A stretch of 39,046 nt of DNA, from the IMG/VR virus record IMGVR_UViG_2579778894_000027; one strand, written 5' to 3'. Position 1 is the first letter of the stretch; the number at the start of each line of letters is the position of its first letter. Both the position numbers and the translations under genes were made by a program. The notes below the pieces were generated by a model that saw nothing but the letters and a program-made list of their open reading frames with translations, had not been told where the DNA came from and did no database searches. Below, in pieces: positions 1 to 36,151 of the stretch. The stretch is from a virus (lineage: Duplodnaviria; Heunggongvirae; Uroviricota; Caudoviricetes).

Positions 1-348
1 TTATATGCGGATTCCAGCGCGTTCCGTTCGTTTCGGGTGCTTCCAGTTGATACCTTCAAGAAGCATGGATAACTGAGCCGGAGTAAGGTGCACCTTGCCG
101 TCACGGGTGACTGGCCAGACGAAGCGGCCCCGCTCCAGGCGTTTGGTGAAGAGGCACAGTCCGTCACTGTCAGCCCACAGCACTTTTATCTGGTCACCCC
201 GGCGTCCGCGGAAGATGAACAGATGCCCGGAGAACGGGTCATCCTTCAGGACGTTCTGAACTTTTGAGGCCAGGCCGTTAAAGCCATTTCGCATATCGGT
301 GATACCGGCAACCAGCCAGATACGCGAACCGGCAGGGAGAGATATCAT
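1..348 (-). CDS. IS66-family TnpB (Orf2) accessory protein
   Basis: 115-aa translation MISLPAGSRIWLVAGITDMRNGFNGLASKV...VLWADSDGLCLFTKRLERGRFVWP matches the conserved IS66 Orf2 family by recall. Confidence 0.8.
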   Translation of the reverse strand: MISLPAGSRIWLVAGITDMRNGFNGLASKVQNVLKDDPFSGHLFIFRGRRGDQIKVLWADSDGLCLFTKRLERGRFVWPVTRDGKVHLTPAQLSMLLEGINWKHPKRTERAGIRI

Positions 349-998
349 CAGTGGCTGCTCCCTTTCATTTCGCGGATAAGTGTCTGTAATAACGCCGGTG
401 TCAGTTCACCTTTCAGCCTGAGAGTTCCGGCCGGCAGAACCAGCTCGCAGCACAGACTGTCTGGCAGTGTATTTATCTGTTCAGGTATCTGCACTGGTGC
501 CGGGATTTTATTATCCGGCTCCGGCGTTAACGTCACGGGAAGTAGCGATGTTTCATGTTCGCCGGGCGGCTGCAGGCCGCCGTTACGCCAGAGATGCCGC
601 CAGTTAAAGAGCAGGTTATCGTTGATTCCGTTCTCGCGAGCTATTTGTGCGACACAGGCACCGGGTAAAAGAGTTTGCTGAACAAGCCTCCATTTAAACT
701 CCGGTGAAAATCGGTTCCGGCGGATTTTCTCTGTTTTCACAGGCTGAGTCACTGTCGGGGCTGAAGGATATCGCCCAGGGAAAAGAGCCCGGGCCAGTTG
801 CATGCAGGAATATTCACCGGAAAGAGGCCAGTCAGCGAATATCTGGTGAAATCGCCTCACCAGAGAAAAAATGGCGGTTTTGCTGACACCGGTCTGCGCA
901 GAAATGCGCGGGTACGACAGTGACTCGTCAAATCTCAGTTGTAGCACACGCAGGATCAATTCCGGATTATCTGCCAGTACCGCCTTTCGTGCATTCAT
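348..998 (-). CDS. IS66-family TnpA-like accessory protein (HTH)
   Basis: 216-aa ORF immediately upstream of and translationally coupled to the TnpB-like ORF; C-terminal half (RRNRFSPEFKWRLVQQTLLPGACVAQIARENGINDNLLFNWR) resembles IS66 Orf1 HTH proteins. Start codon uncertain. Confidence 0.6.
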   Translation of the reverse strand: MNARKAVLADNPELILRVLQLRFDESLSYPRISAQTGVSKTAIFSLVRRFHQIFADWPLSGEYSCMQLARALFPGRYPSAPTVTQPVKTEKIRRNRFSPEFKWRLVQQTLLPGACVAQIARENGINDNLLFNWRHLWRNGGLQPPGEHETSLLPVTLTPEPDNKIPAPVQIPEQINTLPDSLCCELVLPAGTLRLKGELTPALLQTLIREMKGSSH

Positions 999-2303: not shown

Positions 2304-2651
2304 TTACTTATCACATAAATCAAATGCAGCCTTAGTGACATCCCCCAGACTCTTTTTTAACCCTGGGGCGGCATCATTATCTAGCCAAAATGGATTATTG
2401 TTATCTAACGGTAACGCACCAAATGTTTTACCTTTTATTCGAGCCAAACCTGTAAGTGCATATAACTTATTATCGTCAAAATTCATCACATAAGGATTAC
2501 CATCAAGACACTGTAATTGAACCTCATCAGTATTAAATGGCCATACCCCATTGAAACTCTCACGTTCAATAGTTTTAAAAGGCATTGCGACGGCGGAAAA
2601 AGAAAACATAGATAAAAAAGTAACTAATAGTTGAACCTTTTTTACTTTCAT
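2304..2651 (-). CDS. Secreted/periplasmic small protein (signal peptide; possibly YebY/DUF2511-like), accessory
   Basis: 115 aa; N-terminal signal peptide MKVKKVQLLVTFLSMFSFSAVA; two Cys (one near C-terminus); SD gaggt upstream; 6-nt gap to int, so co-operonic. Confidence 0.6.
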   Translation of the reverse strand: MKVKKVQLLVTFLSMFSFSAVAMPFKTIERESFNGVWPFNTDEVQLQCLDGNPYVMNFDDNKLYALTGLARIKGKTFGALPLDNNNPFWLDNDAAPGLKKSLGDVTKAAFDLCDK

Positions 2652-2680
2652 ATCATTACCTCAATTTAGCTCAAGTAAGA

Positions 2681-3331
2681 TTACAAATTAAAAAACGCCC
2701 TAGAAATGACACCGCCTACCAAAACCCCTACGCAGATAAAGAATATTATTTCTTTTGGATAAAGTCGGATTAATTCTGAAGCACGAAGTCGGACTTCTGG
2801 TAAGGTCGAACTCTCTGTGTGGCTTGATGCCGATTGTTGCTCTAACCACGACAATGCAGACTGTAACTGAGAACGAGTAAGATCGTTTAAACGTCCTGTA
2901 CCGAAATTGATATGGCAATACCGCAGAAGTTTTTGTCGAAGTCCACAGTCTTCACTGTTACGTAGTAATAAACTTACAAGAGCCTTACAGGCATCATGAT
3001 CTTTACATCGCTCAAGCATTGCATGCAGAAAACTCTCCGCTGTTTTATATTGATTTACTGTCATATCATCAATACCAGCTACACCAATCTCCGCATGTAC
3101 TTTTTGCCAAATAATAAACGCTTCAGTATTGCTAGCTTCTGCAATAGCAGCAACCAAGCTATTTAGCTCCTTACGCTGAGCCTTAAGCAAAGGGCGATCG
3201 TCATCATCATTATTCGAAGGGATTGCGATATTGACGGTATGAGAACCATCATATCGCTCTATCTGAATATTCTTTTCGTGAAAATCACGCCCAGCAACGC
3301 GATTGTTTGAACCGTTTGAGTTGACGGCCAT
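2681..3331 (-). CDS. Tail-anchored membrane protein of unknown function (accessory gene in repressor-int operon)
   Basis: 216 aa, hydrophilic N-terminal domain and single C-terminal hydrophobic helix IIFFICVGVLVGGVISRAFF; strong SD gggaggtg 5 nt upstream of ATG; N-terminus shares a motif with the C-terminus of the upstream HTH protein. Confidence 0.6.
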   Translation of the reverse strand: MAVNSNGSNNRVAGRDFHEKNIQIERYDGSHTVNIAIPSNNDDDDRPLLKAQRKELNSLVAAIAEASNTEAFIIWQKVHAEIGVAGIDDMTVNQYKTAESFLHAMLERCKDHDACKALVSLLLRNSEDCGLRQKLLRYCHINFGTGRLNDLTRSQLQSALSWLEQQSASSHTESSTLPEVRLRASELIRLYPKEIIFFICVGVLVGGVISRAFFNL

Positions 3332-10471: not shown

Positions 10472-11431
10472 ATGAAAATTTACATCGACGACGGCTCCAC
10501 CAACATCAAGCTGGCATGGACTGAGAACGGCGAACGCCGCAACGCCATCAGCCCGAACAGCTTCAAGTCGGAATGGTCTGCGCCGTTCGGTGGCTCGCAG
10601 CCTGCTAACTACATGCTTGATGGCGTGCGCTATGGTTTTGATCCGGTCAGCGATCGCTTTGTCCAGACGACCGACACGCAATACCAGTACAGCGATGTGA
10701 ATGTCATTGCCATTCATCACGCGCTGGTCAAATCAGACATCACGCCACAGGAAGTGGATGTGGTTGTTACCCTGCCACTGAGCGAATATTTCGACACAAA
10801 CGCACAGCCGGACATGGCCAACATCAACCGCAAAAAAGCGAACGTCATGCGCCCGGTGGAGTACCAGAACGGCGAAGCATTCACTATCCGTAACGTACGG
10901 GTTATGCCTGAATCCATTCCGGCTGGCTTTAAAGCACTGGCTGACATGAGTCCGTTTGAATCCCTGCTGATTGTGGATTTGGGCGGAACCACGCTGGATG
11001 TGGCAAAGGTTCAGGGGCAACTGGCAGGTATCAGCCAGGTGTTTTGCGATCCACACGTAGGCGTTTCTCTTATGGCCGATGCCGTACTGTCGGTGATGGC
11101 CACTAACGGTATGCGCACCAGTCACCACATCGCCAATACCATTATCGAACATCGCCATAATGAAGCCTGGCTGCGCCAGCACATCCACAATGACGCGCAT
11201 TACGCCAGCCTGATGGCGGTTATTCGTGAAAAGGAAGAAACACTGAAACAACGCGTGATCCGCGCGCTGGCGGTTTTTTCGGGTTACGGGCGGGTGATGG
11301 TTGTCGGTGGCGGGGCGGAGATTGTGGCACCCGCTATCCGCGAAGCCTGCGGAGTTAATGCGACTTTCATCGCGGACGGGGTGCCACAGTTTGCTCTGGT
11401 TAATGGGCTGTACGCAATGGACAAGGAGTAA
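10472..11431 (+). CDS. parM: ParM/StbA-like actin-type segregation ATPase
   Basis: N-terminus MKIYIDDGSTNIKLAW...ISPNSFK...YQYSDVNVIAIHHAL...IVDLGGTTLD closely parallels plasmid R1 ParM (VFIDDGSTNIKLQW...SPNSF...WQYSDVNVVAVHHAL) as recalled. Confidence 0.85.
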   Translation: MKIYIDDGSTNIKLAWTENGERRNAISPNSFKSEWSAPFGGSQPANYMLDGVRYGFDPVSDRFVQTTDTQYQYSDVNVIAIHHALVKSDITPQEVDVVVTLPLSEYFDTNAQPDMANINRKKANVMRPVEYQNGEAFTIRNVRVMPESIPAGFKALADMSPFESLLIVDLGGTTLDVAKVQGQLAGISQVFCDPHVGVSLMADAVLSVMATNGMRTSHHIANTIIEHRHNEAWLRQHIHNDAHYASLMAVIREKEETLKQRVIRALAVFSGYGRVMVVGGGAEIVAPAIREACGVNATFIADGVPQFALVNGLYAMDKE

Positions 11432-20703: not shown

Positions 20704-20854
20704 TACTCCCACATGGGGAAATCTCGGTATATGGGGCGACCGCCTTCTGGATGCACTGGAAACCTGTAACGCGGATAAACGAGCCATTGAATTACTGGAA
20801 CAGCGCAGGCTGCAACGACTGAACCACGAGGACAACAACCATGCTGAAAACTGA
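20564..20854 (+). CDS. o-spanin lipoprotein (Rz1/LysC-like), nested/overlapping in the i-spanin gene
   Basis: Lipobox LLTGCAG after short signal; Pro-rich; embedded in alternate frame of i-spanin. Confidence 0.6.
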   Translation: MNAPTLCLTLVLLTGCAGTQNAPRPAPSVRLIPQTLTIPVTPPPFPDTPTWGNLGIWGDRLLDALETCNADKRAIELLEQRRLQRLNHEDNNHAEN

Positions 20855-21308
20855 TTCCCTGCGTGAAGCCATGACCCGTTCATGCCGATGGTGTCAGGCT
20901 AACCCGGAAAAATTCACCATTTTCGTGGAGAGCGGCAACATTGAAACGACCGGAGAAACGCCCTCGTTTGTTTACCGCTATCAGATGGTGATGTTTGTCA
21001 TGGATTACGCCGGAGAGCTGGACGACCTCACGCTGCCGCTGCTGGCGTGGTTATCCGAAAATCAGCCACAGTTGTTGCTCAATCCGGAGCGTAATCAGGA
21101 CATCAAATTTTCCGCCGTTATCAATGACGATGACAGCGCCGATCTCCTGTTTACGCTCCCCCTGCGGGAACGCATTCGCATTACGCGCAACAGTCAGGGG
21201 ACACCGCAGGCAGAACACCTGCCGGAGCCAAAACCCCGCCTGCCCTCTTCCGAAGGCGACTGGTCGCATGTATTCCAGGATGTGACGTGGGGTGAAAGCG
21301 ATGGATAA
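20841..21308 (+). CDS. Tail completion protein R (P2 gpR-like)
   Basis: 155 aa, position and size. Confidence 0.7.
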   Translation: MLKTDSLREAMTRSCRWCQANPEKFTIFVESGNIETTGETPSFVYRYQMVMFVMDYAGELDDLTLPLLAWLSENQPQLLLNPERNQDIKFSAVINDDDSADLLFTLPLRERIRITRNSQGTPQAEHLPEPKPRLPSSEGDWSHVFQDVTWGESDG

Positions 21309-24286: not shown

Positions 24287-26419
24287 ATGAGTACCACAAC
24301 ACGTAAATTTAAAACCGTTATCACCGATACGGGTGCCAAAAAATTAGCTCAGGCAGCAGCGCCAGATGGTAAGCCTGTCCGCCTGACTCATATGGCCGTG
24401 GGCGACGGTGGCGGTACATTGCCCACACCAGACAGTAAGCAGACCCGTCTGGTGCATGAGGTGTGGCGACATACTGTTAATCGCGTCATCCTGGACGCAA
24501 CACATCAGAACCGCATTATTGCAGAGCTGGTTATTCCTCCAGAAACGGGCGGATTCTGGATCCGGGAAATTGGTGTGTTTGATGAGCACGGCGATTTAAT
24601 CGCGGTGGGCAATACTGCCGAAAGTTACAAGCCAGCCGTTGCCGAAGGGTCCGGTCGTGCACAAACATTTCGCACCATTCTGACCGTATCCAGCACTGCC
24701 ACTGTGGCGCTTACCGTGGATAACACCATGGTGATGGCCACAGTGGATTACGTGGATAACAAACTGAAAGAGCATGAACAGTCACGACGTCACCCGGATG
24801 CCTCGCTGACCGCAAAAGGCTTTGTTCAACTCAGTAGCGCCACTAACAACGATTCTGAAACGCAGGCTGCAACGCCGAAAGCAGTAAAGGCCGCGTATGA
24901 CCTTGCTAACGCAAAATATACCGCTCAGGACGCCACGACAACGCGAAAAGGCCTTGTCCAGCTTAGTAGTGCAACCAACAGTACATCTGAAACGCTGGCG
25001 GCAACATCAAATGCAGTAAAAGCTGCCTATGACAATGCTGAAAAACGTCTGCAGAAAGCTAAGAATGGTGAGGATATCTCTGACAAAGACACCTTTACGA
25101 AAAATATCGGTGCCTGCCGTGCATATAGTGCAGAGCTGAATATTGGTGGAGATAGTGAAGCATGGACAACTGCGCAGTTGATTTTTTGGCTAGAGAGTCA
25201 GGGGGCATTTAACCATCCTTACTGGATGTGCAAAGGCTCATGGGCTTATGCAAGTAATAAGGTCATTACAGATACAGGTTGCGGAAATATTTGTCTTGCA
25301 GGTGCTGTTGTGGAAGTTATTGGCACCCGCGGCGCAATGACCATACGCATTACCACACCGAGTACATCCAGCGGTGAAGGCATACCTAATGCTCAATTTA
25401 CTTATATTAATCATGGTGATGCTTATGCTCCTGGCTGGCGAAGGGACTATAACTCCAGGAATAAGCCAACAGCATCAGAGATCGGGGCGTTACCGTCAGA
25501 TGGGACAGCAGTATCGTCAGTTAATCTGGCTTCAAAAGGTCGGCTGACCGCCCTGACAGATAATATGCAGGGGGCCACAGGTCTGGAGTTATACGAGGCG
25601 TATAACAACGGATATCCAACAGCGTATGGAAATATCATTCACCTGAAAGGGATGACAGCCGTTGGCGAAGGTGAGTTACTCATCGGCTGGAGTGGTACAA
25701 GCGGTGCTCATGCTCCGGCATTTATTCGTTCACGACGGGATACGACCGACGCAAACTGGTCGCCGTGGGCGCAGCTTTACACCTCGGCTCATCCTCCTGA
25801 AGAGTTTTATCCAGTCGGTGCACCGATTCCGTGGCCATCAGATACCGTTCCGTCTGGTTATGCCCTGATGCAGGGGCAGACTTTTGACAAATCTGCATAC
25901 CCGAAACTTGCAGTCGCTTATCCGTCAGGCGTGATCCCTGATATGCGTGGCTGGACTATCAAGGGCAAACCTGCCAGTGGTCGTGCCGTATTGTCTCAGG
26001 AACAGGACGGCATTAAATCGCACACCCACAGCGCCAGCGCATCCAGTACTGATTTGGGGACGAAAACCACATCGTCGTTTGATTACGGTACTAAAACGAC
26101 CAGTTCATTTGATTACGGCACAAAAACCACAAATAGCGCAGGAGCTCATTCACACAATATACCTGTTGGTCACACTGGCGCGGGGAATGGTGTATCAGCC
26201 GGTTATAACGCTGCGTTAGGTACTGGTACCACGTCGAGCGCAGGAGGGCATGCTCACAATGTATATATCGGTGCCCATAACCACACTATCGGCATTGGTG
26301 CTCATGCCCATTCTGTCATTATTGGTCCCCACGGACACACCATCACCGTTAATGCTACGGGGAACGCAGAAAACACCGTAAAAAACATCGCATTTAACTA
26401 TATTGTGAGGCTTGCATAA
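24287..26419 (+). CDS. Tail fibre protein H with His-x-His repeat tip
   Basis: 710 aa; conserved N-terminal fibre attachment region; internal ~36-aa repeats ([21 protein letters not shown]); C-terminal HxH repeats. Confidence 0.85.
26057..26130 (+). repeat. Imperfect 30-bp tandem repeat inside tail-fibre gene (encodes [10 protein letters not shown] x about 2.5)
   Basis: Units at 26057-26086, 26087-26116 and partial third. Confidence 0.7.
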
Positions 26420-26997
26420 TGACATTCAGAATGAGTGAACAATCACGGACCATAAAAATTTATAATCTACTGACCGGAACCAATGAGTTTATTGGTGAAG
26501 GTGATGCATACATTCCACCTCATACAGGTCTGCCTGCAAACAGTACCGATATTGCCCCGCCAGATATTCCGGCTGGCTTCGTGGCCGTTTTCAACAGTGA
26601 TGAGGCATCGTGGCATCTCGTTGAAGACCATCGGGGTAAAACGGTTTATGACGTGGCATCAGGGGACTCGTTATTTATTTCTGAACTCGGTCCATTACCG
26701 GAAAATGTTACCTGGTTGTCGCCGTATGGAGAGTATCAGAAGTGGAACGGCACATCCTGGGTGAAAGATGCAGAAGCAGAAAAACTGTTTCGGATAAGGG
26801 AGGCGGAAGAAACAAAAAACAGCCTGATGCAGGTAGCCAGCGAGCATATTGCGCCACTTCAGGATGCCGTAGATTTGGATATTGCAACGGAGGAAGAGGC
26901 ATCGTTACTGGCTGCATGGAAGACATACCGGGTATTGTTGAATCGTGTTAATACAGCGGTAGCAGCGGATGTTGAGTGGCCAGTCGCCCCACAATAA
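26419..26997 (+). CDS. Tail fibre assembly chaperone G
   Basis: 192 aa; ATGA-coupled to H. Confidence 0.75.
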
Positions 26998-27000
26998 AGA

Positions 27001-27036
27001 GAAAAAGCCATCGATTGAAATATAGATGGCTTTATG
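27001..27036. terminator. Bidirectional intrinsic terminator between convergent G and acetyltransferase genes
   Basis: aaagccatc-gattgaaatata-gatggcttt hairpin; T-run on minus strand side (ttttt ctcttt). Confidence 0.6.
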
Positions 27037-27040
27037 TACT

Positions 27041-27613
27041 CTATTTATACAATACAACACCGCTCTTTTTAGTTATATATGTGCAGTTCGATGGTATATC
27101 TTTATTTATAAAAGACATTGCACCTATTTTTACATTATCCCCAATTTTACGTGATAATCCAATGATGCAACAATTAGCTCCGATATCAACGTTACTACCA
27201 ATTTTTACTCTTGAACCAGGCATGTCACCATCTATCTGTCCAATGGTAGTATTCTGTCGTAACACCAGATTTTCACCAGCATCAACAGCAAAATGAACAA
27301 CAATTCCAGCATGATGGGGAATTGTTAACCCTTTTCCAATATTTGCGCCCAATCCAATTTCACAACCAAATTTGTTAATTATTTTACTGTTTAACTTTTT
27401 GGCTGCTTTCTTATGTAATTTATTACCATTAATATACATTTCGTTAGCCAACCGCCACCAGAAAAGGAAATTCCGGTTACGCTGTTTTTTCTCTCTTAAA
27501 AGCCTCCAGATATCCATACGTTTCCGCCGAATTACTTCATATTTCCAGAAGTTTTTTAAATTAGTAGAGTTCCCAAATAAAACAAAGTGAATTGCCATTA
27601 AGTAAGACAGCAC
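27041..27613 (-). CDS. Hexapeptide-repeat (left-handed beta-helix) O-acetyltransferase, CysE/WcaB-like; accessory
   Basis: GANIGKGLTIPHHAGIVVHFAVDAGENLVL...RVKIGSNVDIGANCCIIG...IGDNVKIGAMSFI hexapeptide repeats; AT-rich; GTG start at 27613 preceded by AAGGAG (an upstream in-frame GTG/ATG to 27646 is possible). Confidence 0.75.
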   Translation of the reverse strand: MLSYLMAIHFVLFGNSTNLKNFWKYEVIRRKRMDIWRLLREKKQRNRNFLFWWRLANEMYINGNKLHKKAAKKLNSKIINKFGCEIGLGANIGKGLTIPHHAGIVVHFAVDAGENLVLRQNTTIGQIDGDMPGSRVKIGSNVDIGANCCIIGLSRKIGDNVKIGAMSFINKDIPSNCTYITKKSGVVLYK

Positions 27614-27769
27614 GATAATCTCCTTAATTATTATTTCAGACCACACATGTTATAAGGTTAAGAGATTATAAAATCCTGTTGTTTGTTATTCAAAAACAAT
27701 TTTCTGAGAAGGACATACAACAGCAAGTCGCCAGTCACCTTCATCAGGAAATTGGCGACATACGTTAAA

Positions 27770-28264
27770 TCAGAGCAGCCCCTTAACTGAGCTGGTCGCG
27801 CTATTAAGGGATGATGTCACCTTATCTTTGAAGCCGGACAACATATCGCTGAACGATGAGGATTGCAGGCGCTCCCGCAAATCCTCATCACAGCGTTCAA
27901 GGTTCAGTGAAAATTCTATCTTTTTCGCCTTACCGTAGCGATCAAACTCGGAGCGGGTCGTATTCGTTCCGGTCAGGACATACATGCCGTAAATCTGCCC
28001 GACGCCATCAATCAGAGGCCAGGGGCGTCCTGTATACGCCTGCGTGGTCAGCAGCGACAGCGACACTTCGCCACCTGTAATTTCAGGATAAAGCACACCA
28101 GAAAGAACGATGCGATCATCACCTGCACCGATATACTGCCAGCTTGCTGAACGGTTAACGCGTTCATTTTTCACATGCCGCCAGCTTTTGTTTTGCTGTA
28201 ACTGCTGATGCGGCAGCGTGCGCAGCTCAAAAACAAACATGCCATAGATCATCATCATGGCCAT
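27770..28264 (-). CDS. Tail protein U
   Basis: 164 aa; MAMMMIYGMFVFELRTLPHQQ...VLYPEITGG...WPLIDG pattern of P2 gpU family. Confidence 0.75.
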   Translation of the reverse strand: MAMMMIYGMFVFELRTLPHQQLQQNKSWRHVKNERVNRSASWQYIGAGDDRIVLSGVLYPEITGGEVSLSLLTTQAYTGRPWPLIDGVGQIYGMYVLTGTNTTRSEFDRYGKAKKIEFSLNLERCDEDLRERLQSSSFSDMLSGFKDKVTSSLNSATSSVKGLL

Positions 28265-28270
28265 GACTCC

Positions 28271-31114
28271 TCAATCTTTATCGTAAAAACTGCCACGCCC
28301 GGCACGGGCGCGCCGTTCCATTTCTGCCCTGACCATTTCACCGACCAGTTTCGCCAGTTCGCGGGGATTCTGTGTAACAACGTTATGCAGATGAACATGA
28401 ATTTCACCACCAAATCCGGAGGCAACAGGCTCCCGGTTACGGGAAGTTACAGGAACTGATGCCACTGGAGATCGTATGGCCTCCGCCACCGGGCGGGAGC
28501 TGGCCGCAACAACAGGGACCAGCGCCGGAGGCAGCGGAGCCGGGACCACGGGTGTGATATTAATTGCGGGGGCAGGCTTACTGACCTGCGCAATCTTCCG
28601 CTCCTGCCACTCCCCACGAACAGCAAGTGCGCGGGGCAGGTTCTTAAAGACAATATCGCCGGGGCCAATGCGTTTTTTCGTCTCCTCAACCAGCTTACCT
28701 GTGTTATCAGCAATTTTGCTGAGTCTGCGCAGCGTACCGGTATTGCTGTCTGTGAGCGGTTTATTGTCTTTGGGGTTATCACCTCCGGTGCCATTGCCAT
28801 TTTCCACAGGCTTCGGCGGATTGATTTTCGCCAGGTCCCCCTGAAGCAAGGCAACCTTGTCCTGAAGAATGGCCGCACGCTGTGCGTCTTCGATTTTCTT
28901 TCTCGCCCTTTCCGCTTCATCCGGAAGAACACCGAGTTTTTCAAGTATCCACGCCAGCGTATCCAGCAACATTTTTGCAGGCGTCAGAACAAGCTGTAAC
29001 GCGCCACCAAGAACGTTACCGAATATCTCGCCAGCACTGGTACATTTATCCAGCGTTTCCTTGCTGGACTCCATCGGTGACAGCAGCGATTTAAACCAGT
29101 TAAACACCTGGCTGATCCCGCTTCCGATTGCGTCAAAAACAGGGCCAAACCGTTCAAAGGTTTCGCGCAACGGGGCCAGTCGCTCCATAATCCCACTGAA
29201 CACCCCGGCATAAAACGCCTTGATGGGTTCCCAGTATTTCCAGATGAGAACCGCCGCAGCGACAAACGCTGCAGCAATCAACCCGACCGGACTGAACAGC
29301 GCCCCGATAGCGCCTCCCAGTAACGAAACGGAACCCATCACCATTCCCCATAGTGCTGGCAGGACCCTGACAGCATTCATTGATCCGGTCAGGAGAGAAA
29401 AACCAAGACGCAGTTTTGCCAGCGGGCCAGCAAGCACACCAATAGCCAGCGACAACGAGCCAACCGTTGCAGTCATTGCCAGCAACGCACCGCCTGCTAT
29501 CAGTAGCTGGCGCGTCAGTGCCGGATGGGCCTGCGCCAGCGCCGTCACCCTTGATACCACCCGCGTGAGCCACTGCGTGACAGAACGCAGCGGACCGTCA
29601 ATCAGATCTGCAATGCGGATGCGCAACCCTTCCCATGCACTGCCGAGTGATTTCAGATCGCCGTCAAGGTTGTTGGCCATAACCTTTGCTGTGCGTTCAG
29701 CCTCACCGCGCGCGCCTTCAAGTTCTTTTCTCAGTTTGGGTAAGGAACCATCACCCGCTGCATCAACGAGCGCCATAAACGATGTGAAAGCCTCTTCTCC
29801 GGCAATGTCCTTAAAGAACGATACCCGGTCAACTTCCCCGTATTTGCGGGTGGCTTTATAAAGGTCAGCCAGCACATCCTCCATCGGGCGCATTTTGCCG
29901 TTCGCGTCGGAGACTGCCACACCAAGCTCTTTCAGCGCCTCTGCTGCTGCCTTTGGCGGTGATGCCAGACGAGCCAGGCTGGCACGCATTGCCGTCCCGG
30001 CATCACTCCCTCTGATACCCATATTCGCCAGCACGCCCGCCATCGCTGCGGCCTGCTCCAGCGATATTCCCAGCTTACCCGCCACTGGACCTGCATATTT
30101 CATGGTTTCGCCCAGTGCGCGAAGGTCAGTGTTGGTACGGGTAAATGCTGCGGTGAGCGTGTCGCCAACCCGGTCCATCTGGTCAGCAGAAAGGTCGAAC
30201 TGCGTCAGGATATTTGAGCCAATATCCGCCGTCTCGCCGAGATCCATGCCGCCAGCCGTTGCCATGCTCAGCACGCCCGGAAGCGCAGCCTGAATGGCCT
30301 GCGGAGTGAAGCCAGCCATTGCAAGAAATGCCTGCCCACTGGCGGCATCGCCTGCGGTGAACTGCGTTTCAGAGCCAAGTTTTAACGCCTGCTCACGCAG
30401 CGCCTTAAACTGCGGGCTGTTTTTGTCGATTCGCGTCAGTGCCTGAACGCGGGACATCTCTTTGCCGAACCCGATCGCAGGCTGCAAAAAACGCCCGGCA
30501 GCATAGCCGCCCGCCGCTGCCGCACCAATTGCCAGCGCACCACCTGTTTTCAGTTTTCCCGCGGTTTCCTGCACGCGCGAATACCGCTCACGCGCCCGCG
30601 TTACACGCGCAAGCGCCTGCCGTTCGCGTTCAAGCTGGTTGTTGTACTGTTCGGTGCGTCTGATGGCCTGCTGGATGGTGTTATCGCTGCCTGTCAGGGA
30701 AATGCCGTGGCGTTTCAGCTCTCCGCCAAGCTCCCGCATTTTCTGAATTTCCCGTGTGCGCGATTCATTCAGGCGTTCAAGCCGGGTGCTTAACTGCTGC
30801 ATCAGCTTTTGTTGTTTTTCGCTGAGCACTGTACCCGTGCGTTGTAACTGATTAAGGGCGTTAAGCTGGCGTCGTGCTTTCACGATACCCGCATCCGCTT
30901 TACTGACAGCGTCGCGGGCGCGCTCAAATGAACGCGCCTGACGCTCGAGATTTTTGATCGCCCCCTGCGTTCGCTGGATGGAGTCACCAAACTGCCCCAT
31001 CAGGCGGCGGGCGTTTTCGGCAGGCCGGGTCAGCCTGTCAACGGCGCTGAAAGCGACCCGGATATCAAGAGTCTTCATTGTCTGCATTCCCGCTGCGAAG
31101 TGCCGCCCGCTCAC
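28271..31114 (-). CDS. Tail tape measure protein T
   Basis: 947 aa, coiled-coil N-terminal part, Gly/Ala-rich hydrophobic middle, downstream of E/E'. Confidence 0.85.
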   Translation of the reverse strand: MSGRHFAAGMQTMKTLDIRVAFSAVDRLTRPAENARRLMGQFGDSIQRTQGAIKNLERQARSFERARDAVSKADAGIVKARRQLNALNQLQRTGTVLSEKQQKLMQQLSTRLERLNESRTREIQKMRELGGELKRHGISLTGSDNTIQQAIRRTEQYNNQLERERQALARVTRARERYSRVQETAGKLKTGGALAIGAAAAGGYAAGRFLQPAIGFGKEMSRVQALTRIDKNSPQFKALREQALKLGSETQFTAGDAASGQAFLAMAGFTPQAIQAALPGVLSMATAGGMDLGETADIGSNILTQFDLSADQMDRVGDTLTAAFTRTNTDLRALGETMKYAGPVAGKLGISLEQAAAMAGVLANMGIRGSDAGTAMRASLARLASPPKAAAEALKELGVAVSDANGKMRPMEDVLADLYKATRKYGEVDRVSFFKDIAGEEAFTSFMALVDAAGDGSLPKLRKELEGARGEAERTAKVMANNLDGDLKSLGSAWEGLRIRIADLIDGPLRSVTQWLTRVVSRVTALAQAHPALTRQLLIAGGALLAMTATVGSLSLAIGVLAGPLAKLRLGFSLLTGSMNAVRVLPALWGMVMGSVSLLGGAIGALFSPVGLIAAAFVAAAVLIWKYWEPIKAFYAGVFSGIMERLAPLRETFERFGPVFDAIGSGISQVFNWFKSLLSPMESSKETLDKCTSAGEIFGNVLGGALQLVLTPAKMLLDTLAWILEKLGVLPDEAERARKKIEDAQRAAILQDKVALLQGDLAKINPPKPVENGNGTGGDNPKDNKPLTDSNTGTLRRLSKIADNTGKLVEETKKRIGPGDIVFKNLPRALAVRGEWQERKIAQVSKPAPAINITPVVPAPLPPALVPVVAASSRPVAEAIRSPVASVPVTSRNREPVASGFGGEIHVHLHNVVTQNPRELAKLVGEMVRAEMERRARAGRGSFYDKD

Positions 31115-31301
31115 GCCAGCTAACCACTTCGCCGGGCGTCATCATGAAGATTTCGGCGGGCGACCAGTTAAAAATGGCGGCAATATCCGCCACAAAGTCT
31201 TCTATGTGCTCAAAGCACACAACCGTGATCAGGCTTCCGTCGCCTGTTCGTTCTTCCCGCCAGAGTCCGCACCGCTCAAAAAATTTACGGCAACCACACA
31301 T
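31065..31301 (-). CDS. E' -1 frame extension (tail assembly chaperone frameshift product E+E')
   Basis: ORF in -1 frame overlapping 3' end of E; slippery heptamer TTTTTTG at 31277-31283 (minus strand). Confidence 0.55.
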   Translation of the reverse strand: MCGCRKFFERCGLWREERTGDGSLITVVCFEHIEDFVADIAAIFNWSPAEIFMMTPGEVVSWRERAALRSGNADNEDS

Positions 31302-31594
31302 AACTGAATAAAGTCACGGGATGCCATTTTTTTGATCGTCACTTCATCCAGTCGCGGTGATGTCACGCGTGACAGCAGCGTAAACATGGATTCCGCTTTC
31401 AGATTCAGCACATCAGACAGCGACAAATCTCGCAGAGATCCAGCCTGCTCAATAGCCCCGGTGATCTCCACATACGTGATTTTTTCGCCGCCTCGCTCAA
31501 TGGGTTGGGTAAGTTTTACGCCACGCTCACTGGTTTCTTTCACAGTGTCAGTAACTACCGTGTTTTCGGTATCGATGTTTTTCGTCTCTTTCAT
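31229..31594 (-). CDS. Tail assembly chaperone E
   Basis: 121 aa, between tube gene and tape measure. Confidence 0.7.
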   Translation of the reverse strand: MKETKNIDTENTVVTDTVKETSERGVKLTQPIERGGEKITYVEITGAIEQAGSLRDLSLSDVLNLKAESMFTLLSRVTSPRLDEVTIKKMASRDFIQLCVVAVNFLSGADSGGKNEQATEA

Positions 31595-31648
31595 CAGGAA
31601 ACTCCTTTCAGTCAGAGGCGACGCACTGCGCCGCCTGCATATTACTTA

Positions 31649-32161
31649 TCAGCCAAGCCCGAGCGCGGAACGGATGCGATCGGGCACAATGTCCTTGCCG
31701 TCCTTCCGGTAAATGAAGTTCAGCAGGTCAATTTCCCACAACGGGCGATCGTTAACGCTCAGCTTGTAGTAGGTGTTTTTAATGGCGTAAGTGTGTGATG
31801 TGGCTTCGCCCTGTTTGGCTTCCCCCATATCAATTTCCGTCACACGTCCGCGCATTTCGACTTCATACAGGTCGCTTTCTGCATCGGTGTAGTATTCACC
31901 CGCAAAACGCAGCAGCGTGCCGTCAATCGTGCCGCCATACTTAAGGAACAGCTCACGAACTGCGCCCCCCATGACAAAGTTCGCATCAAGGGCGGAGTCG
32001 TCCAGACCGAGATCAATACTTACCGCACCCATCATGCCACCACCCCGGTAGCTGTCGGTTTTGCGCGTCAGTTTGGGCAGAGTGACGGACGTCACCTTAC
32101 CCACTTCGTTTTCACCATCCACAAACAGCGTAAAAAAGCGAAGATGTTTTGGCACAGCCAT
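31649..32161 (-). CDS. Tail tube protein FII
   Basis: 170 aa, position and size. Confidence 0.8.
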   Translation of the reverse strand: MAVPKHLRFFTLFVDGENEVGKVTSVTLPKLTRKTDSYRGGGMMGAVSIDLGLDDSALDANFVMGGAVRELFLKYGGTIDGTLLRFAGEYYTDAESDLYEVEMRGRVTEIDMGEAKQGEATSHTYAIKNTYYKLSVNDRPLWEIDLLNFIYRKDGKDIVPDRIRSALGLG

Positions 32162-33345
32162 CAGGCACCTCCCAGCACCGCAAATGCGGGACCAAAGAAT
32201 TCATCAGTAAACGTCTGGTAAAGCTCCATGTCTTCCAGCGGGGGAACAGGCGTATATTTGTAGCGAATACGCACGCGCCCCTGACGTAAATACGTGGTGC
32301 TGTTATCCACCACGTCATACCAGCACTCCGCGCCAATCAGTTTCCCGGCAGTAACCAGTGAATCCAGTTTTGCCCTGATGGCACTGATAACATCCTTCAC
32401 GTTCGCAGGCGTCAGTGGACTGTCGATGGTTTCAAACTGCGCTTCCGCAATTGAATCAGCCAGCACCTGTGCGGTTCGGGTATACACCTCAAAGATGTAG
32501 GCGTTCGTTTCCGGTGTGCGGTTGCCCCAGAAGCGGAACCCGTTGCGACGAATAATGGTCGTGATTTCTTTGTTGTTGAGGCTGTTGGCATCGCTGTCTT
32601 CGGCCTGCAACGACCAGAACACATGCCTCGACATCCCCAGCACATTTTTAACCGGAACGTTGGACAGTGATTTGTGCCATCCCTGCTCATGGTCGATGTA
32701 CGCACGAAGGCCGCACGCATAGGCAGGCGCGGGGAACGTTTCGTTTTTGCCACTTTTCGGGTTGTAGGCGATGAAGTCTGGCCATAAGAGCATCACCTCA
32801 CGTTCGTTGAATTTCTGGCGGTAGGTAATCGCCTCAGCCATCGTGTTACAGCCGTGACATGAGGCATACACAAACGCGCGCAGTTTACCTGCAATCACGC
32901 ACAGGGATTTCGTTACCGCCTCCGTGTCCAGCTCCGGCGCGGCCAGAATACGCGGACGGTATCCAATGCTTTCATCCTGCTCTGCAACAAGCAGCGCATA
33001 CATCCCCGTATAGCTGCCGTCATCCTCAGAACCACCGATAACCAGTTGATCCTGCGTCTTTCCGTCTTCTTCTTTGTGTTCAGCCACGCGAACGACGATC
33101 ACCTTTGTGCTCACCTGGTCTGCGATGGCCTTAAGCGCACGATAAAGCGTCCCCGTTGTTCCGCATTTTCCCAGCACGTCATTGACGCGGGTCAGCAGTG
33201 TGGGCTTGTTCAGCGGGAACAGCTTCGCGTCCGCATCATCCGCCGTTGCCACGATACCGATAACGCTGGAATCAACATCGTTAATCGCTGTTACCAGGTC
33301 GGTATTTTCCGTAACACGGGCACCATGAAAACGAGTTTCACTCAT
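32161..33345 (-). CDS. Contractile tail sheath protein FI
   Basis: 394 aa, position and size; ATGA-coupled to FII. Confidence 0.85.
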   Translation of the reverse strand: MSETRFHGARVTENTDLVTAINDVDSSVIGIVATADDADAKLFPLNKPTLLTRVNDVLGKCGTTGTLYRALKAIADQVSTKVIVVRVAEHKEEDGKTQDQLVIGGSEDDGSYTGMYALLVAEQDESIGYRPRILAAPELDTEAVTKSLCVIAGKLRAFVYASCHGCNTMAEAITYRQKFNEREVMLLWPDFIAYNPKSGKNETFPAPAYACGLRAYIDHEQGWHKSLSNVPVKNVLGMSRHVFWSLQAEDSDANSLNNKEITTIIRRNGFRFWGNRTPETNAYIFEVYTRTAQVLADSIAEAQFETIDSPLTPANVKDVISAIRAKLDSLVTAGKLIGAECWYDVVDNSTTYLRQGRVRIRYKYTPVPPLEDMELYQTFTDEFFGPAFAVLGGA

Positions 33346-33502
33346 AGCTTCAGCCCCTTGTATCCGTTAAATGATTCGGCAACAATCATCACCCACCACG
33401 CGCGTAATCTCACCCCTGCGCCGTTCTCCCGATTCGGCGACAACAAAAAGCAGTAACCCCTTCCGCACGCACATGCGACCATGCCGCACAGGGAGGGAAC
33501 AG

Positions 33503-34612
33503 ATGACCGATACCACCATGCAATTGCTCAGTCAGGGCACAGACCCCGTGAAAATGCCGGATTTGGATATTCTCGCGGAGGGTAAAACGCTGTCCGGCGT
33601 GGCAGAGCGCCTGATGAACCTGTCACTGACCGACAACCGGGGATTTGAAGCGGACCAGCTCACCATCACGCTGGATGATGCGGATGGTCAGTTGCAGCTA
33701 CCGCCACGGGGCGCGCGCCTGACGGTTCTCATTGGCTGGAAAGGAGAACCGCTGACAGAAAAAGGCACTTACATTGTTGATGAAATCGCTCACGAAGGAC
33801 CGCCGGACAGGCTGACTGTTTCAGCCAGAAGCGCAGATTTTCGGGATGAATTTAACGTTAAACGTGAAGTATCCTGGCATGATGTGACCGTTGAGCGCGT
33901 GGTATCCGCCATCGCTCATCGGTACGGCCTGAAACCGCAAATCAGCGAAATGCTGATGGATATCGAAATCGACCACGCCGACCAGACCGAAGAAAGCGAC
34001 ATGTCCTTCCTTACGCGCATGGCGGAAATGCTGGGCGCAATCACTACGGTAAAAAGCGGTAATCTGTTATTCATCATGCCAGGCGGTGGCGTGAACGCAC
34101 AGGGCCAGCCGTTGCCCTCGTTCGCCATCACGCGCAGCAGTGGCGATCGCCATCAGTTCCGCATTGCTGACCGCGAAGCGTATACGGGGGTACGCGCTTA
34201 CTGGCTTGATCTTAATTACGGGAAAAAGAAAAAAGTCAGCGTGAAACGCCGCAAACCGCCAAAACCCAAAAAGGAGAAAAGCAGCAGCCGTGAAGGTGAT
34301 TATATGGAAGGCGCAGAAGGCAATGTGTTTGTGTTACGCAAGACTTATCAGAACGAGCAGGCAGCAAGACGCGCAGCGGCGGCAAAGTGGCAGCAGCTAC
34401 AACGCGGAGCCGCATCATTTTCCATCACGCTGGCGCGTGGACGTGCAGAACTCTACCCCGAAATGCATGGCACGGTAACAGGATTTAAAAGCGAGATTGA
34501 TAATCAGGACTGGATTATTGCAAAAGCCGAGCACACTATTGATGACAGTGGCTTTACCACACAGCTTGAGCTTGAAGCAAAAATCCCGGAATGGATAGCG
34601 GAAACAGAATGA
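33503..34612 (+). CDS. Late control gene D protein (tail/baseplate hub, GPD family)
   Basis: Start at ATG 33503 with SD gggaggg; 369 aa. Confidence 0.75.
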   Translation: MTDTTMQLLSQGTDPVKMPDLDILAEGKTLSGVAERLMNLSLTDNRGFEADQLTITLDDADGQLQLPPRGARLTVLIGWKGEPLTEKGTYIVDEIAHEGPPDRLTVSARSADFRDEFNVKREVSWHDVTVERVVSAIAHRYGLKPQISEMLMDIEIDHADQTEESDMSFLTRMAEMLGAITTVKSGNLLFIMPGGGVNAQGQPLPSFAITRSSGDRHQFRIADREAYTGVRAYWLDLNYGKKKKVSVKRRKPPKPKKEKSSSREGDYMEGAEGNVFVLRKTYQNEQAARRAAAAKWQQLQRGAASFSITLARGRAELYPEMHGTVTGFKSEIDNQDWIIAKAEHTIDDSGFTTQLELEAKIPEWIAETE

Positions 34613-35026
34613 GCAAATTAGATGTATTGACTCAAACCAGAACTGACACACTCACAGCACAGTGCCAGACCCAATCTGGCAGCCCGCTTTGTGCCTAGAG
34701 CAGGTGTTGCTTATGTAACAGTTAATCCACGGATAGTGGTCATGAATGCTGGTTGAAGTTGTATTGCCATGAATGGTCAATTAGGGACTCACTTATTATC
34801 GCGTGCTCACCATTGATGGGTAAGATCATGCATTTCGGCTACTGTACTTCGCGAATCCTCCACACACAGGCAACACCTGATTTAAGAACAGAGGGAGATG
34901 ATGACGCAAGGAAGATTTATTATCGTGCATGTGGCAGATGATCTTTTAGCTGCCGGAGTGATAAATTACACCTATTTTCGATAAGTGTTTTTGTTATAGA
35001 ACATTAATTTCGTGGGAAACAATAAA

Positions 35027-36151
35027 GTGAAATTAGGAAGAAATGATAAGTGCTGGTGTAATTCAGGACTTAAGTATAAAAAGTGCCATCTTGGTCGAGA
35101 CCGTGAAACTCCGGTATCCAAAGCCGAGGCACTGAAATTTTCAAAGTCTCTCTCGCAGAGAAAGGCATGTTATGCGCCAGCATCCATGCACGAAGATTGT
35201 GATAAACGCATCGTTCAGGCGCATACGATATCTAAGAGCAGTAGCCTTAAGGCGATCGCCGACTCCAGCAATCACGTCATGGGGGTGATAATGAACTTAG
35301 CAAGCCTGATGAGAAACAACGGAAAATGGCTTCCCGAGAAGATCGGTATCAATCAGGCATCCACTTTTACAGGATTTTGTGCAGTTCATGACAGAATCTT
35401 GTTTTCATGCCTAGAGAACGAAAAATTTACAGGCACGGACGAGCAGTGCTTTGCCTTAATGTTTCGTTCATTGTCTAAAGAAATTTACGCCAAAGAAGGG
35501 GGAGTGCTATCTTCCGATTTTGCTAAAAATGCCGATAAAGGAAAGCTACAAGTTGAACAGTATTATATTCAGAAATTAATCGACCAGCACCAAAGTGGCT
35601 TAAATGCAGCAATAATTGAATTAAATCATCTTAAAACTAGCCTCGACCGCATCCTACTTAGCAGGCAATTTTCAGAAATTGAAAGTGTTATCTTCACTTT
35701 TGCAGAGCCTTTACCAATTGTAGTTTCGTCAATTCTTTCACCGGAGAGGGATTTCGATGGGACCAAAATTCAGGATTTGAGCGATCTTACAGTGTCGGCG
35801 GAACAAGTATGTTTCAATGCTTTTTCCTGCGGAGGTAAGGGATATGTAGTGTTCAGTTGGCTGAGAACTTCAACAATTATCAGACGTTTTATACGGACAC
35901 TAATTAAGATCCCGGCTAACAGGATGTTCAATACCCTTCTGTATTTTTTCTTCACAAAGGCCGAAAATACATATTCATCCCCTGAGTGGTGGGACAGGCT
36001 CAGTGATAAACAGCGAGAGAATATCGGCAACATGATTATGTCAGGGGTTGAATTTTTTGGCAGACCTACATCACAGGTTGATCATTCCGTTGATTATAAC
36101 GCCGCTGCACTTGAAGAGATAACATGCAGCAACAACGAAATTTGCAGCTGA
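35027..36151 (+). CDS. SEC-C-motif (zinc-binding) protein of unknown function; AT-rich accessory gene
   Basis: N-terminal GRNDKCWCNSGLKYKKCH matches SEC-C metal-binding motif (C-x-C-x8-C-H); remainder unrecognised; strongly AT-rich; start could be GTG 35012 or 35027. Confidence 0.6.
   Translation: MKLGRNDKCWCNSGLKYKKCHLGRDRETPVSKAEALKFSKSLSQRKACYAPASMHEDCDKRIVQAHTISKSSSLKAIADSSNHVMGVIMNLASLMRNNGKWLPEKIGINQASTFTGFCAVHDRILFSCLENEKFTGTDEQCFALMFRSLSKEIYAKEGGVLSSDFAKNADKGKLQVEQYYIQKLIDQHQSGLNAAIIELNHLKTSLDRILLSRQFSEIESVIFTFAEPLPIVVSSILSPERDFDGTKIQDLSDLTVSAEQVCFNAFSCGGKGYVVFSWLRTSTIIRRFIRTLIKIPANRMFNTLLYFFFTKAENTYSSPEWWDRLSDKQRENIGNMIMSGVEFFGRPTSQVDHSVDYNAAALEEITCSNNEICS

Follow-up and report, generated by a model that had tools for sequence, protein, structure and literature searches.

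Prophages that acetylate the surface of their host are already known. The cytoplasmic K1 capsule O-acetyltransferase NeuO of prophage CUS-3, a hexapeptide-family enzyme of the LacA/NodL branch, is encoded next to the tail-spike region and is phase-variable via 5′ heptanucleotide repeats, while Oac of Shigella phage Sf6 and the O157 O-acetyltransferase of phage phiV10 are serotype-converting integral-membrane enzymes of the acyltransferase-3 type. In phage P2, the gene order G(+), terminator, fun(Z)(−), F promoter, FI-FII-E-T-U-D(+) places directly behind the tail-fibre chaperone gene G the cargo gene fun(Z), the product of which is recorded in the P2 database entry as blocking T5 growth. Here we analyse the gene found at this position in IMG/VR virus record IMGVR_UViG_2579778894_000027, the 39,046 nucleotides of which are referred to as the window, and which is a P2-like prophage next to a tRNA-Leu/Cys/Gly-pgsA locus. 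The gene (27041..27613, minus strand) encodes a putative O-acetyltransferase that RefSeq and phage records label "serine (O-)acetyltransferase", and annotations of it under this mistaken name already exist for hundreds of genomes. New here are its reassignment from CysE, the family-wide linkage to tail-fibre and lipopolysaccharide (LPS) glycosyltransferase genes, and a slot that alternates with a fibre-switching cassette. We favour, at a probability of roughly one half, a lysogenic-conversion enzyme that would O-acetylate LPS or another surface glycan and would thereby mask a phage receptor. Surface-glycan O-acetylation is proposed because the protein class lies near WcaB, because GT9 and GT25 glycosyltransferases and waa/O-antigen genes recur as partners, and because a heptosyltransferase-family gene occupies the same slot in related prophages.

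The open reading frame at 27041..27646 (minus strand) reported in the initial annotation is present in the window, but its longest form begins at GTG 27646, which has no ribosome-binding site, and the start was accordingly moved. GTG 27613, 33 bases downstream, is preceded by a Shine-Dalgarno sequence, AAGGAG (27620..27625, minus strand), read from the sequence at 6-nt spacing; the PGAP start in a 99.8%-identical genome is the equivalent codon (190 aa, WP_000954196.1), and in the family alignment the start residue of homologues in other genera matches it as well. Since Shine-Dalgarno site, PGAP start and homologue starts agree, the gene is taken as 27041–27613, with 573 nt encoding a 190 aa product composed of an ~80-aa helical N-domain and a left-handed beta-helix. 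The AT-rich composition first ascribed to it holds, with a GC content of 0.335–0.365 against 0.46–0.49 for the tail-fibre chaperone gene and 0.50–0.57 for the tail genes (in summary 0.34 against 0.48–0.57 in the flanks), and dN/dS amounts to 0.14–0.22 in comparison with three other alleles. The data thus show a genuine and intact gene of foreign composition that evolves under purifying selection.

Expression signals surround the gene on both sides. A sigma-70-like promoter, TTGAAT-17-TATAAT, is predicted at 27665..27693 (minus strand), ~50 nt 5′ of the start codon, with 10/12 consensus matches, from a consensus scan that returned 5 sites in the region against 3.6 expected by chance. Beyond it, directly 3′ of the stop codon of tail gene U (gpU; 27770..28264, minus strand; Pfam Phage_P2_GpU 4e-38, also annotated in sister locus L001), the final gene of an inverted FI-FII-E-T-U operon, folding of the minus strand over 27700–27775 gives a hairpin at 27727..27759 of −24.1 kcal/mol (z = −4.6). 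This stem is followed by no clear U-run, and we therefore infer its terminator function; with it the tail operon probably comes to an end, and late transcription is probably kept out of the acetyltransferase gene. On the other side, the 43 nt between the convergent stop codons of acetyltransferase and chaperone (26419..26997, plus strand; P2 G-like, Caudo_TAP, Pfam 1.2e-39) hold a 9-bp stem with a 12-nt loop at 27004..27033 (arms 27004–27012 and 27025–27033), which folds at −14.3 kcal/mol on the plus and −16.6 kcal/mol on the minus strand (z = −4.2 and −4.6) and which a simple terminator scanner missed because its loop exceeds 8 nt. The minus strand carries a UUUUUCUCUUU run after this stem and the plus-strand U-run is poor, for which reason it is predicted to be an intrinsic terminator for the acetyltransferase gene and a weak one for the chaperone gene; the bidirectional terminator proposed at first thus folds in both directions but convinces in one. 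A spacing of 44 nt to the chaperone gene is seen again in most loci with a close relative of the window allele. Taken together, the GC content of 0.34, the promoter-like site, the Shine-Dalgarno sequence, the flanking hairpins and a slot that is polymorphic among near-identical prophages are those of a cargo gene, and support the view that this AT-rich beta-helix acetyltransferase gene is a horizontally acquired accessory gene with its own expression signals.

Profile and structure searches agree with the left-handed beta-helix acetyltransferase class proposed initially. At E ≤ 0.01 the window protein matches 21 NCBIfam beta-helix families, among them EpsC (4.9e-21), cysE (9.3e-17) and WcaB (1e-14), as well as 37 PDB sequences, the best of which are serine acetyltransferases (1.4e-12), and every match that Foldseek lists for an AlphaFold2 (AF2) model is a serine acetyltransferase, with a probability of 1.00 for the top 31. 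The Pfam Hexapep score of 23.6 bits lies below the gathering score of 27 and is uninformative alone; a second allele in the same slot passes at 47.5 bits. Judged from sequence and predicted fold, the protein is a hexapeptide, or left-handed beta-helix, acyltransferase. It stays well outside the named NCBIfam families, with 75.2 bits against a cut-off of 150 for the best match, EpsC-type NF041874, 61.5 against 210.65 for CysE TIGR01172, 36.7 against 397 for PRK11132 and 53.3 against 194.65 for WcaB TIGR04016, and its gene lies in a prophage, not in a wca cluster. The match to phrog_2154, which PHROGs lists as of "unknown function", reaches E = 1.3e-87, with residues 13–190 covering profile positions 3–181 of 185, and a family hidden Markov model built from 40 homologues scores members at 150–302 bits and WcaB at 94 bits. 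By these scores the protein belongs to a family of its own, phrog_2154, near WcaB. Direct comparison likewise makes WcaB (TIGR04016/PRK10191) the closest characterised relative, with 35% identity over 109 aa of the beta-helix and shared "HH" and "IR-x-x-T-IG" motifs.

Alignment with the K-12 CysE and WcaB proteins shows the catalytic dyad to be kept, with His100 aligned to CysE His158 and Glu85 to Asp143; within the family His100 is nearly invariant, position 85 is Asp or Glu, and an FWWRLA motif in the helical N-domain, which is serine acetyltransferase/WcaB-like, is invariant. The AF2 model, computed from the 40-sequence alignment, has a pLDDT of 78, confident for the helical N-domain and weak for the beta-helix as a monomer, and neither model nor sequence contains a segment of membrane-spanning length. 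These features point to an active-looking O-acetyltransferase of its own family. Membership of CysE was examined residue by residue and rejected. The serine/cysteine pocket of the E. coli enzyme is formed by Asp92, Asp157, Arg192 and His193; in the window protein Asp157 is replaced by Pro99 and the Asp92-Pro93 pair has no equivalent, and the Arg192/His193 columns vary across the 40 family members. The C-terminal tail of CysE, which ends in Ile and docks into CysK, is absent, the window protein ending ...GVVLYK right after the beta-helix, and the N-domain measures ~80 aa versus ~140 aa in CysE. The database name "serine acetyltransferase" is therefore, on this residue-level evidence, very probably wrong. 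Of the earlier designation "CysE/WcaB-like", the first half falls, the dyad being the sole feature kept among those tested, and the second stands as a resemblance (35%) rather than as membership (53 vs 195 bits).

Family members recur next to tail-fibre genes in several phage lineages. The downstream gene of each member was taken in all fetched loci and redundancy was removed, which gave 33 distinct neighbour clusters; a Caudo_TAP tail-fibre assembly gene is the neighbour in 10 of these, convergent every time, at 35–92% protein identity. At the upper end stand the P1-like (Punavirus) phages Ro157c2YLVW and JL22 (92%), where the enzyme lies between tfa and a U′ remnant; the annotation of the stretch shown around it includes no recombinase gene. 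Another P2-like lineage carries a 71%-identical allele behind its tail-fibre assembly gene, and so do three other myoviruses, Citrobacter phage phiNP (44%), E. coli phage 613R2 (36%) and Hafnia phage yong2 (35%), with more distant members. In a scan of genome contigs, ~13 true family members were usable among the matches listed, the rest being mostly distant beta-helix proteins. Nucleotide homology (blastn, 94% identity) between Ro157c2YLVW and window 25808..27605 marks a mobile block of tail-fibre tip, chaperone and acetyltransferase, running from the fibre tip through the chaperone and ending at the acetyltransferase start codon. Simple hitch-hiking, that is, co-divergence of enzyme and chaperone, was tested and rejected: the two identities are uncoupled, with 37% for the enzyme and 78% for the chaperone in one pair and 86% and 68% in another, so that the adjacency reflects more than one recent co-transfer. 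In the loci with the 71%-identical allele (L002–L004, 6617–7605) an 87-aa chaperone fragment and a 222-aa class-I methyltransferase precede the intact chaperone gene, which is further cargo stacking at the same joint.

Which genes fill the slot behind the chaperone was surveyed in viral contigs anchored on a near-identical gpU, using the 72 loci with enough downstream sequence from the best 80 matches; the sample is non-random and redundant, and the counts are indicative only. The window allele occupies the slot in 30 of the 72 loci and the 37%-identical second allele in 5, and the latter is found also in an O166:H15 genome. Six loci, and likewise strain VG35A2, carry a GT9 (heptosyltransferase-family) glycosyltransferase gene of 392–412 aa with a GC content of 0.33, and 23 loci, as well as an ST131 genome, a cassette in the style of Mu and P1 in which a serine-recombinase invertase accompanies an alternate chaperone and fibre tip; the slot is empty or otherwise filled in the remaining 8/72. 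One and the same acetyltransferase allele, that of the window, follows two different variants of chaperone and fibre tip, and the fibre that precedes the GT9 gene has a collar region reading as in the window. The GT9 gene of VG35A2 (L188, 4695–5873) is 28% identical to a GT9 gene beside an acetyltransferase of this family in a Morganella prophage. In sister P2-like prophages (L190, 1275–3978; L229, 731–3153), in which the slot corresponds to window 26998–27769, it contains, besides the serine-recombinase invertase, an alternate fibre tip and a second chaperone gene in inverted orientation, an arrangement that by analogy is a host-range switch in the style of the Mu G-segment or the P1 C-segment. 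The acetyltransferase and GT9 alleles look like replacements of the distal half of such an invertible tail-fibre segment.

As can be seen from the gene order, the gene lies directly after the G-like chaperone gene and convergent with it, exactly where P2 has fun(Z), so that the Z/fun position assigned at first is right on this flank; it differs on the far one. Compared with P2, the FI-FII-E-E′-T-U block of the window is inverted, with D alone on the plus strand, and on its far side the acetyltransferase gene consequently meets the 3′ end of U, where P2 has the F promoter and FI. The inverted block extends over 27770–33345 (minus strand), with gpD (33371–34612, plus strand) divergent from FI. 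The same layout is present in every sister prophage examined (L001, L002–L005 and L188–L190) and is therefore a feature of the lineage rather than a local rearrangement.

Other members of the family keep company with LPS genes. In a Xenorhabdus bovienii prophage the gene lies between integrase and tail fibre and is followed after 59 nt by a GT25 gene on the same strand, and a Morganella prophage has HicAB, acetyltransferase and GT9 in succession, beside a tail fibre homologous to that of Xenorhabdus (~50% identical); one viral contig pairs a member with an HtrL/YibB protein. A 48%-identical member of Leminorella grimontii sits inside the waa core cluster, in the order GT4, WaaP kinase, GT4, GT8, WaaY, MptE-like gene, acetyltransferase, and convergent Wzy_C/WaaL-type ligase. 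A Pseudomonas member has a GT2 glycosyltransferase on one side and a UDP-sugar dehydrogenase together with an oxidoreductase on the other, and a Halomonas member is found after an MptE-like partner and before a UDP-sugar dehydrogenase. The MptE-like/DUF115 proteins (weak match; 258–261 aa) are encoded directly 5′ of the acetyltransferase in Leminorella (L011, 7132–7908) and Halomonas (L019, 7013–7798), and their 37% identity suggests a conserved two-gene module in chromosomal loci. Thus, the family is repeatedly linked to tail-fibre modules, LPS glycosyltransferases and LPS gene clusters. Members are located also at prophage ends and in a Salmonella islet, and a 50%-identical one (L090–L093, 5001–5594) on a plasmid (113 kb in L090), just 3′ of a type IV pilus cluster with prepilin peptidase and SLT genes, which we take to be the bfp operon of enteropathogenic E. 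coli, and near IS66 copies and effector-gene fragments.

The gene of the window itself is widespread. Of 5426 complete E. coli genomes, 531, roughly a tenth, match a 901-nt region around it; most of the region is present in 510, and 66 of the matches to it are on plasmids. Among the matches listed, carriers include O26, O103 and O111 strains, and for an 1846-nt query over the same slot the matches listed include O157:H7 strains too. The gene occurs also on P1-like phage-plasmids, one of which spreads blaCTX-M-55.

In the mechanism that we propose, the cargo gene ("moron") would be expressed from its own promoter in the lysogen and would yield a soluble, acetyl-CoA-dependent, trimeric beta-helix O-acetyltransferase. 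This enzyme would acetylate a sugar of a surface glycan that is still under assembly on the cytoplasmic side of the inner membrane. On the genomic evidence we rank LPS first as candidate acceptor, most likely as the LPS core or an undecaprenyl-linked O-unit, with colanic acid or enterobacterial common antigen less likely. LPS-directed phage fibres would bind the altered surface more weakly, by which lysogens would be spared superinfection and released virions would be spared adsorption to sister cells and debris. Recognition by P2-like phages is directed at LPS-associated structures, and a recent preprint shows for a P2-like prophage that its progeny attack sister lysogens unless the receptor is masked (PMC13622650), which offers a selective reason for a receptor-editing cargo gene. 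The surface-polysaccharide modification put forward in the initial annotation has gained in weight from the LPS-core, O-antigen and exopolysaccharide-type clusters, the GT9/GT25 pairing and the GT9 gene in the same slot; we still infer it.

Several points weigh against this proposal. To our knowledge, the published O157, O26 and O111 O-unit structures list no O-acetyl groups, which makes stoichiometric acetylation of the O-antigen less likely. The stretch behind tail-fibre chaperone genes is a recombination joint of a general kind, and adjacency could reflect the landing of cargo rather than function. A large number of family members stand as orphans amid housekeeping genes unrelated to them, or are located on a bfp-type plasmid or on small islets, so that context supports an LPS role in a minority of loci only. 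The beta-helix part of the AF2 model has a pLDDT of 56–74, at which the acceptor pocket could not be read, and the promoter is only a consensus match. Finally, no functional study of the gene was found in the literature searched, the only mentions being one in which it is called serine acetyltransferase with its "reason" unknown (PMC9603915) and one in which it is entered as a "fitness" cargo gene in a list (PMC6456863).

Were LPS indeed acetylated, the gene would represent a widespread, unrecognised determinant of phage host range, with a bearing on phage therapy and on biocontrol of Shiga toxin-producing E. coli (STEC), surface antigenicity could change, and the site after the tail-fibre chaperone would be a dedicated receptor-editing slot filled by an acetyltransferase, a heptosyltransferase-family glycosyltransferase or a fibre-switching cassette. 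Were it not, the corrected annotation would remain, in that the protein is not CysE. A broader version of the LPS proposal is speculative, and we consider it rather unlikely: the phrog_2154 enzymes and the slot-sharing GT9 and GT25 genes may constitute an as yet unrecognised "LPS-core editing" toolkit of temperate myoviruses with P2-, P1- and Mu-type tails, in which they replace the alternate-fibre/invertase half and rewrite the core receptor of the lysogen instead of the phage's own fibre. A prophage-dependent core O-acetyl group would then exist in ~10% of complete E. coli genomes, including O157, O26, O103 and O111 STEC, where it would have been overlooked by standard de-O-acylating structural work and would shape phage susceptibility and possibly immune recognition.

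Among the alternatives, the one that survives best, though we think it unlikely, is an intracellular weapon against phages or other elements that would not act via the surface; its acetylation target might be a phage protein, nucleotide or metabolite, or it might serve as a toxin-like effector. The gene is the positional equivalent of P2 fun(Z) with its block of T5, defence systems abound in P2 hotspots (PMC9122126, PMC13586616), many members of the family occur as single genes, and toxin-antitoxin or abortive infection (Abi) genes often stand beside them (HicAB in phiNP and Morganella, an Abi gene in ESSI2_ev040). Against this, a scan of PADLOC-DB 2.0 returned 0 defence families even at E ≤ 1 and thus no support for a known defence system, the word "acetyltransferase" is absent from the main text of the two P2-hotspot papers, the recurring partners are LPS glycosyltransferases and clusters and not nucleases, ATPases or sensors, and the enzyme is nearest to sugar and serine O-acetyltransferases.

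Acetylation of a small xenobiotic or sugar in the manner of LacA, Maa, CatB or Vat, which would give the host detoxification or antibiotic tolerance unrelated to phages, is less probable still. The hexapeptide superfamily does contain such enzymes, the gene acts as a single unit in many unrelated contexts, and weak NCBIfam and PDB matches to galactoside and maltose O-acetyltransferases exist (1e-6 to 2e-4). These matches, however, fall short of those to the EpsC/CysE/WcaB clade by many orders of magnitude, the helical N-domain with FWWRLA is not LacA-like, and the linkage to LPS and tail fibres would go unexplained; a xenobiotic acetyltransferase (XAT)/CatB/Vat-type enzyme was rejected, as no CatB or Vat model in NCBIfam matched at E ≤ 0.01.

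We regard as very improbable a genuine serine O-acetyltransferase, that is, a CysE paralogue of the auxiliary metabolic type, with O-acetylserine as its product, by which cysteine synthesis would be raised or the cys regulon induced, either in the lysogen or in the course of infection. It has in its favour the name in the databases, the best PDB sequence and fold matches and the His/acid dyad, and is opposed by scores far under the cut-offs, by the missing serine-binding residues, CysK tail and long N-domain, and by gene contexts that are LPS or phage tail fibre and never sulfur metabolism. A virion role, in which the enzyme would modify the phage's own tail fibre or chaperone during assembly, would account for strict adjacency to tail-fibre chaperone genes in several phage lineages and for travel with fibre tip and chaperone between P2-like and P1-like phages, but is the least credible of all, given that the gene is convergent with the fibre genes, has a promoter-like site of its own and is set apart from both late operons by hairpins, is replaced by a glycosyltransferase, an invertase cassette or nothing in otherwise near-identical prophages, stands as the same allele behind two chaperone/fibre-tip variants, and has relatives in chromosomal LPS clusters without a phage.

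Other genes of note lie away from the slot. A ParM actin-like segregation gene (10472–11431, plus strand) with a short gene after it lies between replication gene A and the portal gene, at the position of the P2 old/tin hotspot, where about a quarter of P2-like phages have a putative plasmid partitioning system (PMC9122126). Between gpD and ogr is inserted another cargo gene (35012–36151, plus strand; GC 0.42) for a 379-aa protein with an N-terminal SEC-C zinc motif, named "YecA family" in RefSeq. Two AT-rich genes adjoining the integrase (2304–3331, minus strand) are possible further lysogenic-conversion cargo; one (GC 0.35) encodes a 115-aa DUF2511 protein whose N-terminus resembles a signal peptide, the other (GC 0.41) a 216-aa protein without Pfam match. 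IS66-family genes (TnpB_IS66 Orf2 and an HTH_Tnp_1 protein; 1–998, minus strand) adjoin the integrase end of the prophage. In the closely related prophage of strain E2865 (L001, 11988–13984), a 1.9-kb DUF6645 gene lies between the lysis genes and tail gene R; the corresponding place in the window (~20789–20883) is without it, which makes this a third variable site in the lineage.

Set against characterised systems, the acetyltransferase shares something with each of those compared. WcaB is a short cytoplasmic enzyme from the colanic-acid cluster, in which acetylated lipid-linked sugar intermediates are built; the K-12 record names acetylated undecaprenyl-diphosphate-linked colanic-acid intermediates as substrates of the transferases neighbouring WcaB, and WcaB and WcaF are presumably their makers. 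Compared with WcaB, the N-terminal helical domain of the window protein is longer and contains FWWRLA, and its gene is phage-carried, outside a colanic-acid cluster. With CysE (TIGR01172) it has in common the architecture of helical N-domain and left-handed beta-helix, the His/acid dyad and the top PDB fold and sequence matches, and it lacks the residues that bind serine, the C-terminus that docks into CysK and the long hexamerisation domain. P2 Fun(Z) is alike in position and orientation after the G chaperone, convergent, and in being non-essential cargo, but fun(Z) is unrelated in kind and size (1587 nt versus 573 nt) and has the F promoter on its far flank, where the window has the end of the inverted tail operon. 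NeuO provides the precedent for a prophage beta-helix O-acetyltransferase that alters a surface polysaccharide; in contrast to NeuO, no tandem repeat that could give NeuO-like phase variation was detected in 26900–27900 at a minimum score of 30, and no polysialic-acid acetyltransferase chain is among the PDB matches at E ≤ 0.01. Oac and the phiV10 enzyme, lastly, resemble the window enzyme in the proposed outcome, a prophage that acetylates LPS and blocks adsorption of its own kind, whereas the window enzyme is a soluble beta-helix protein and would therefore have to act before export.

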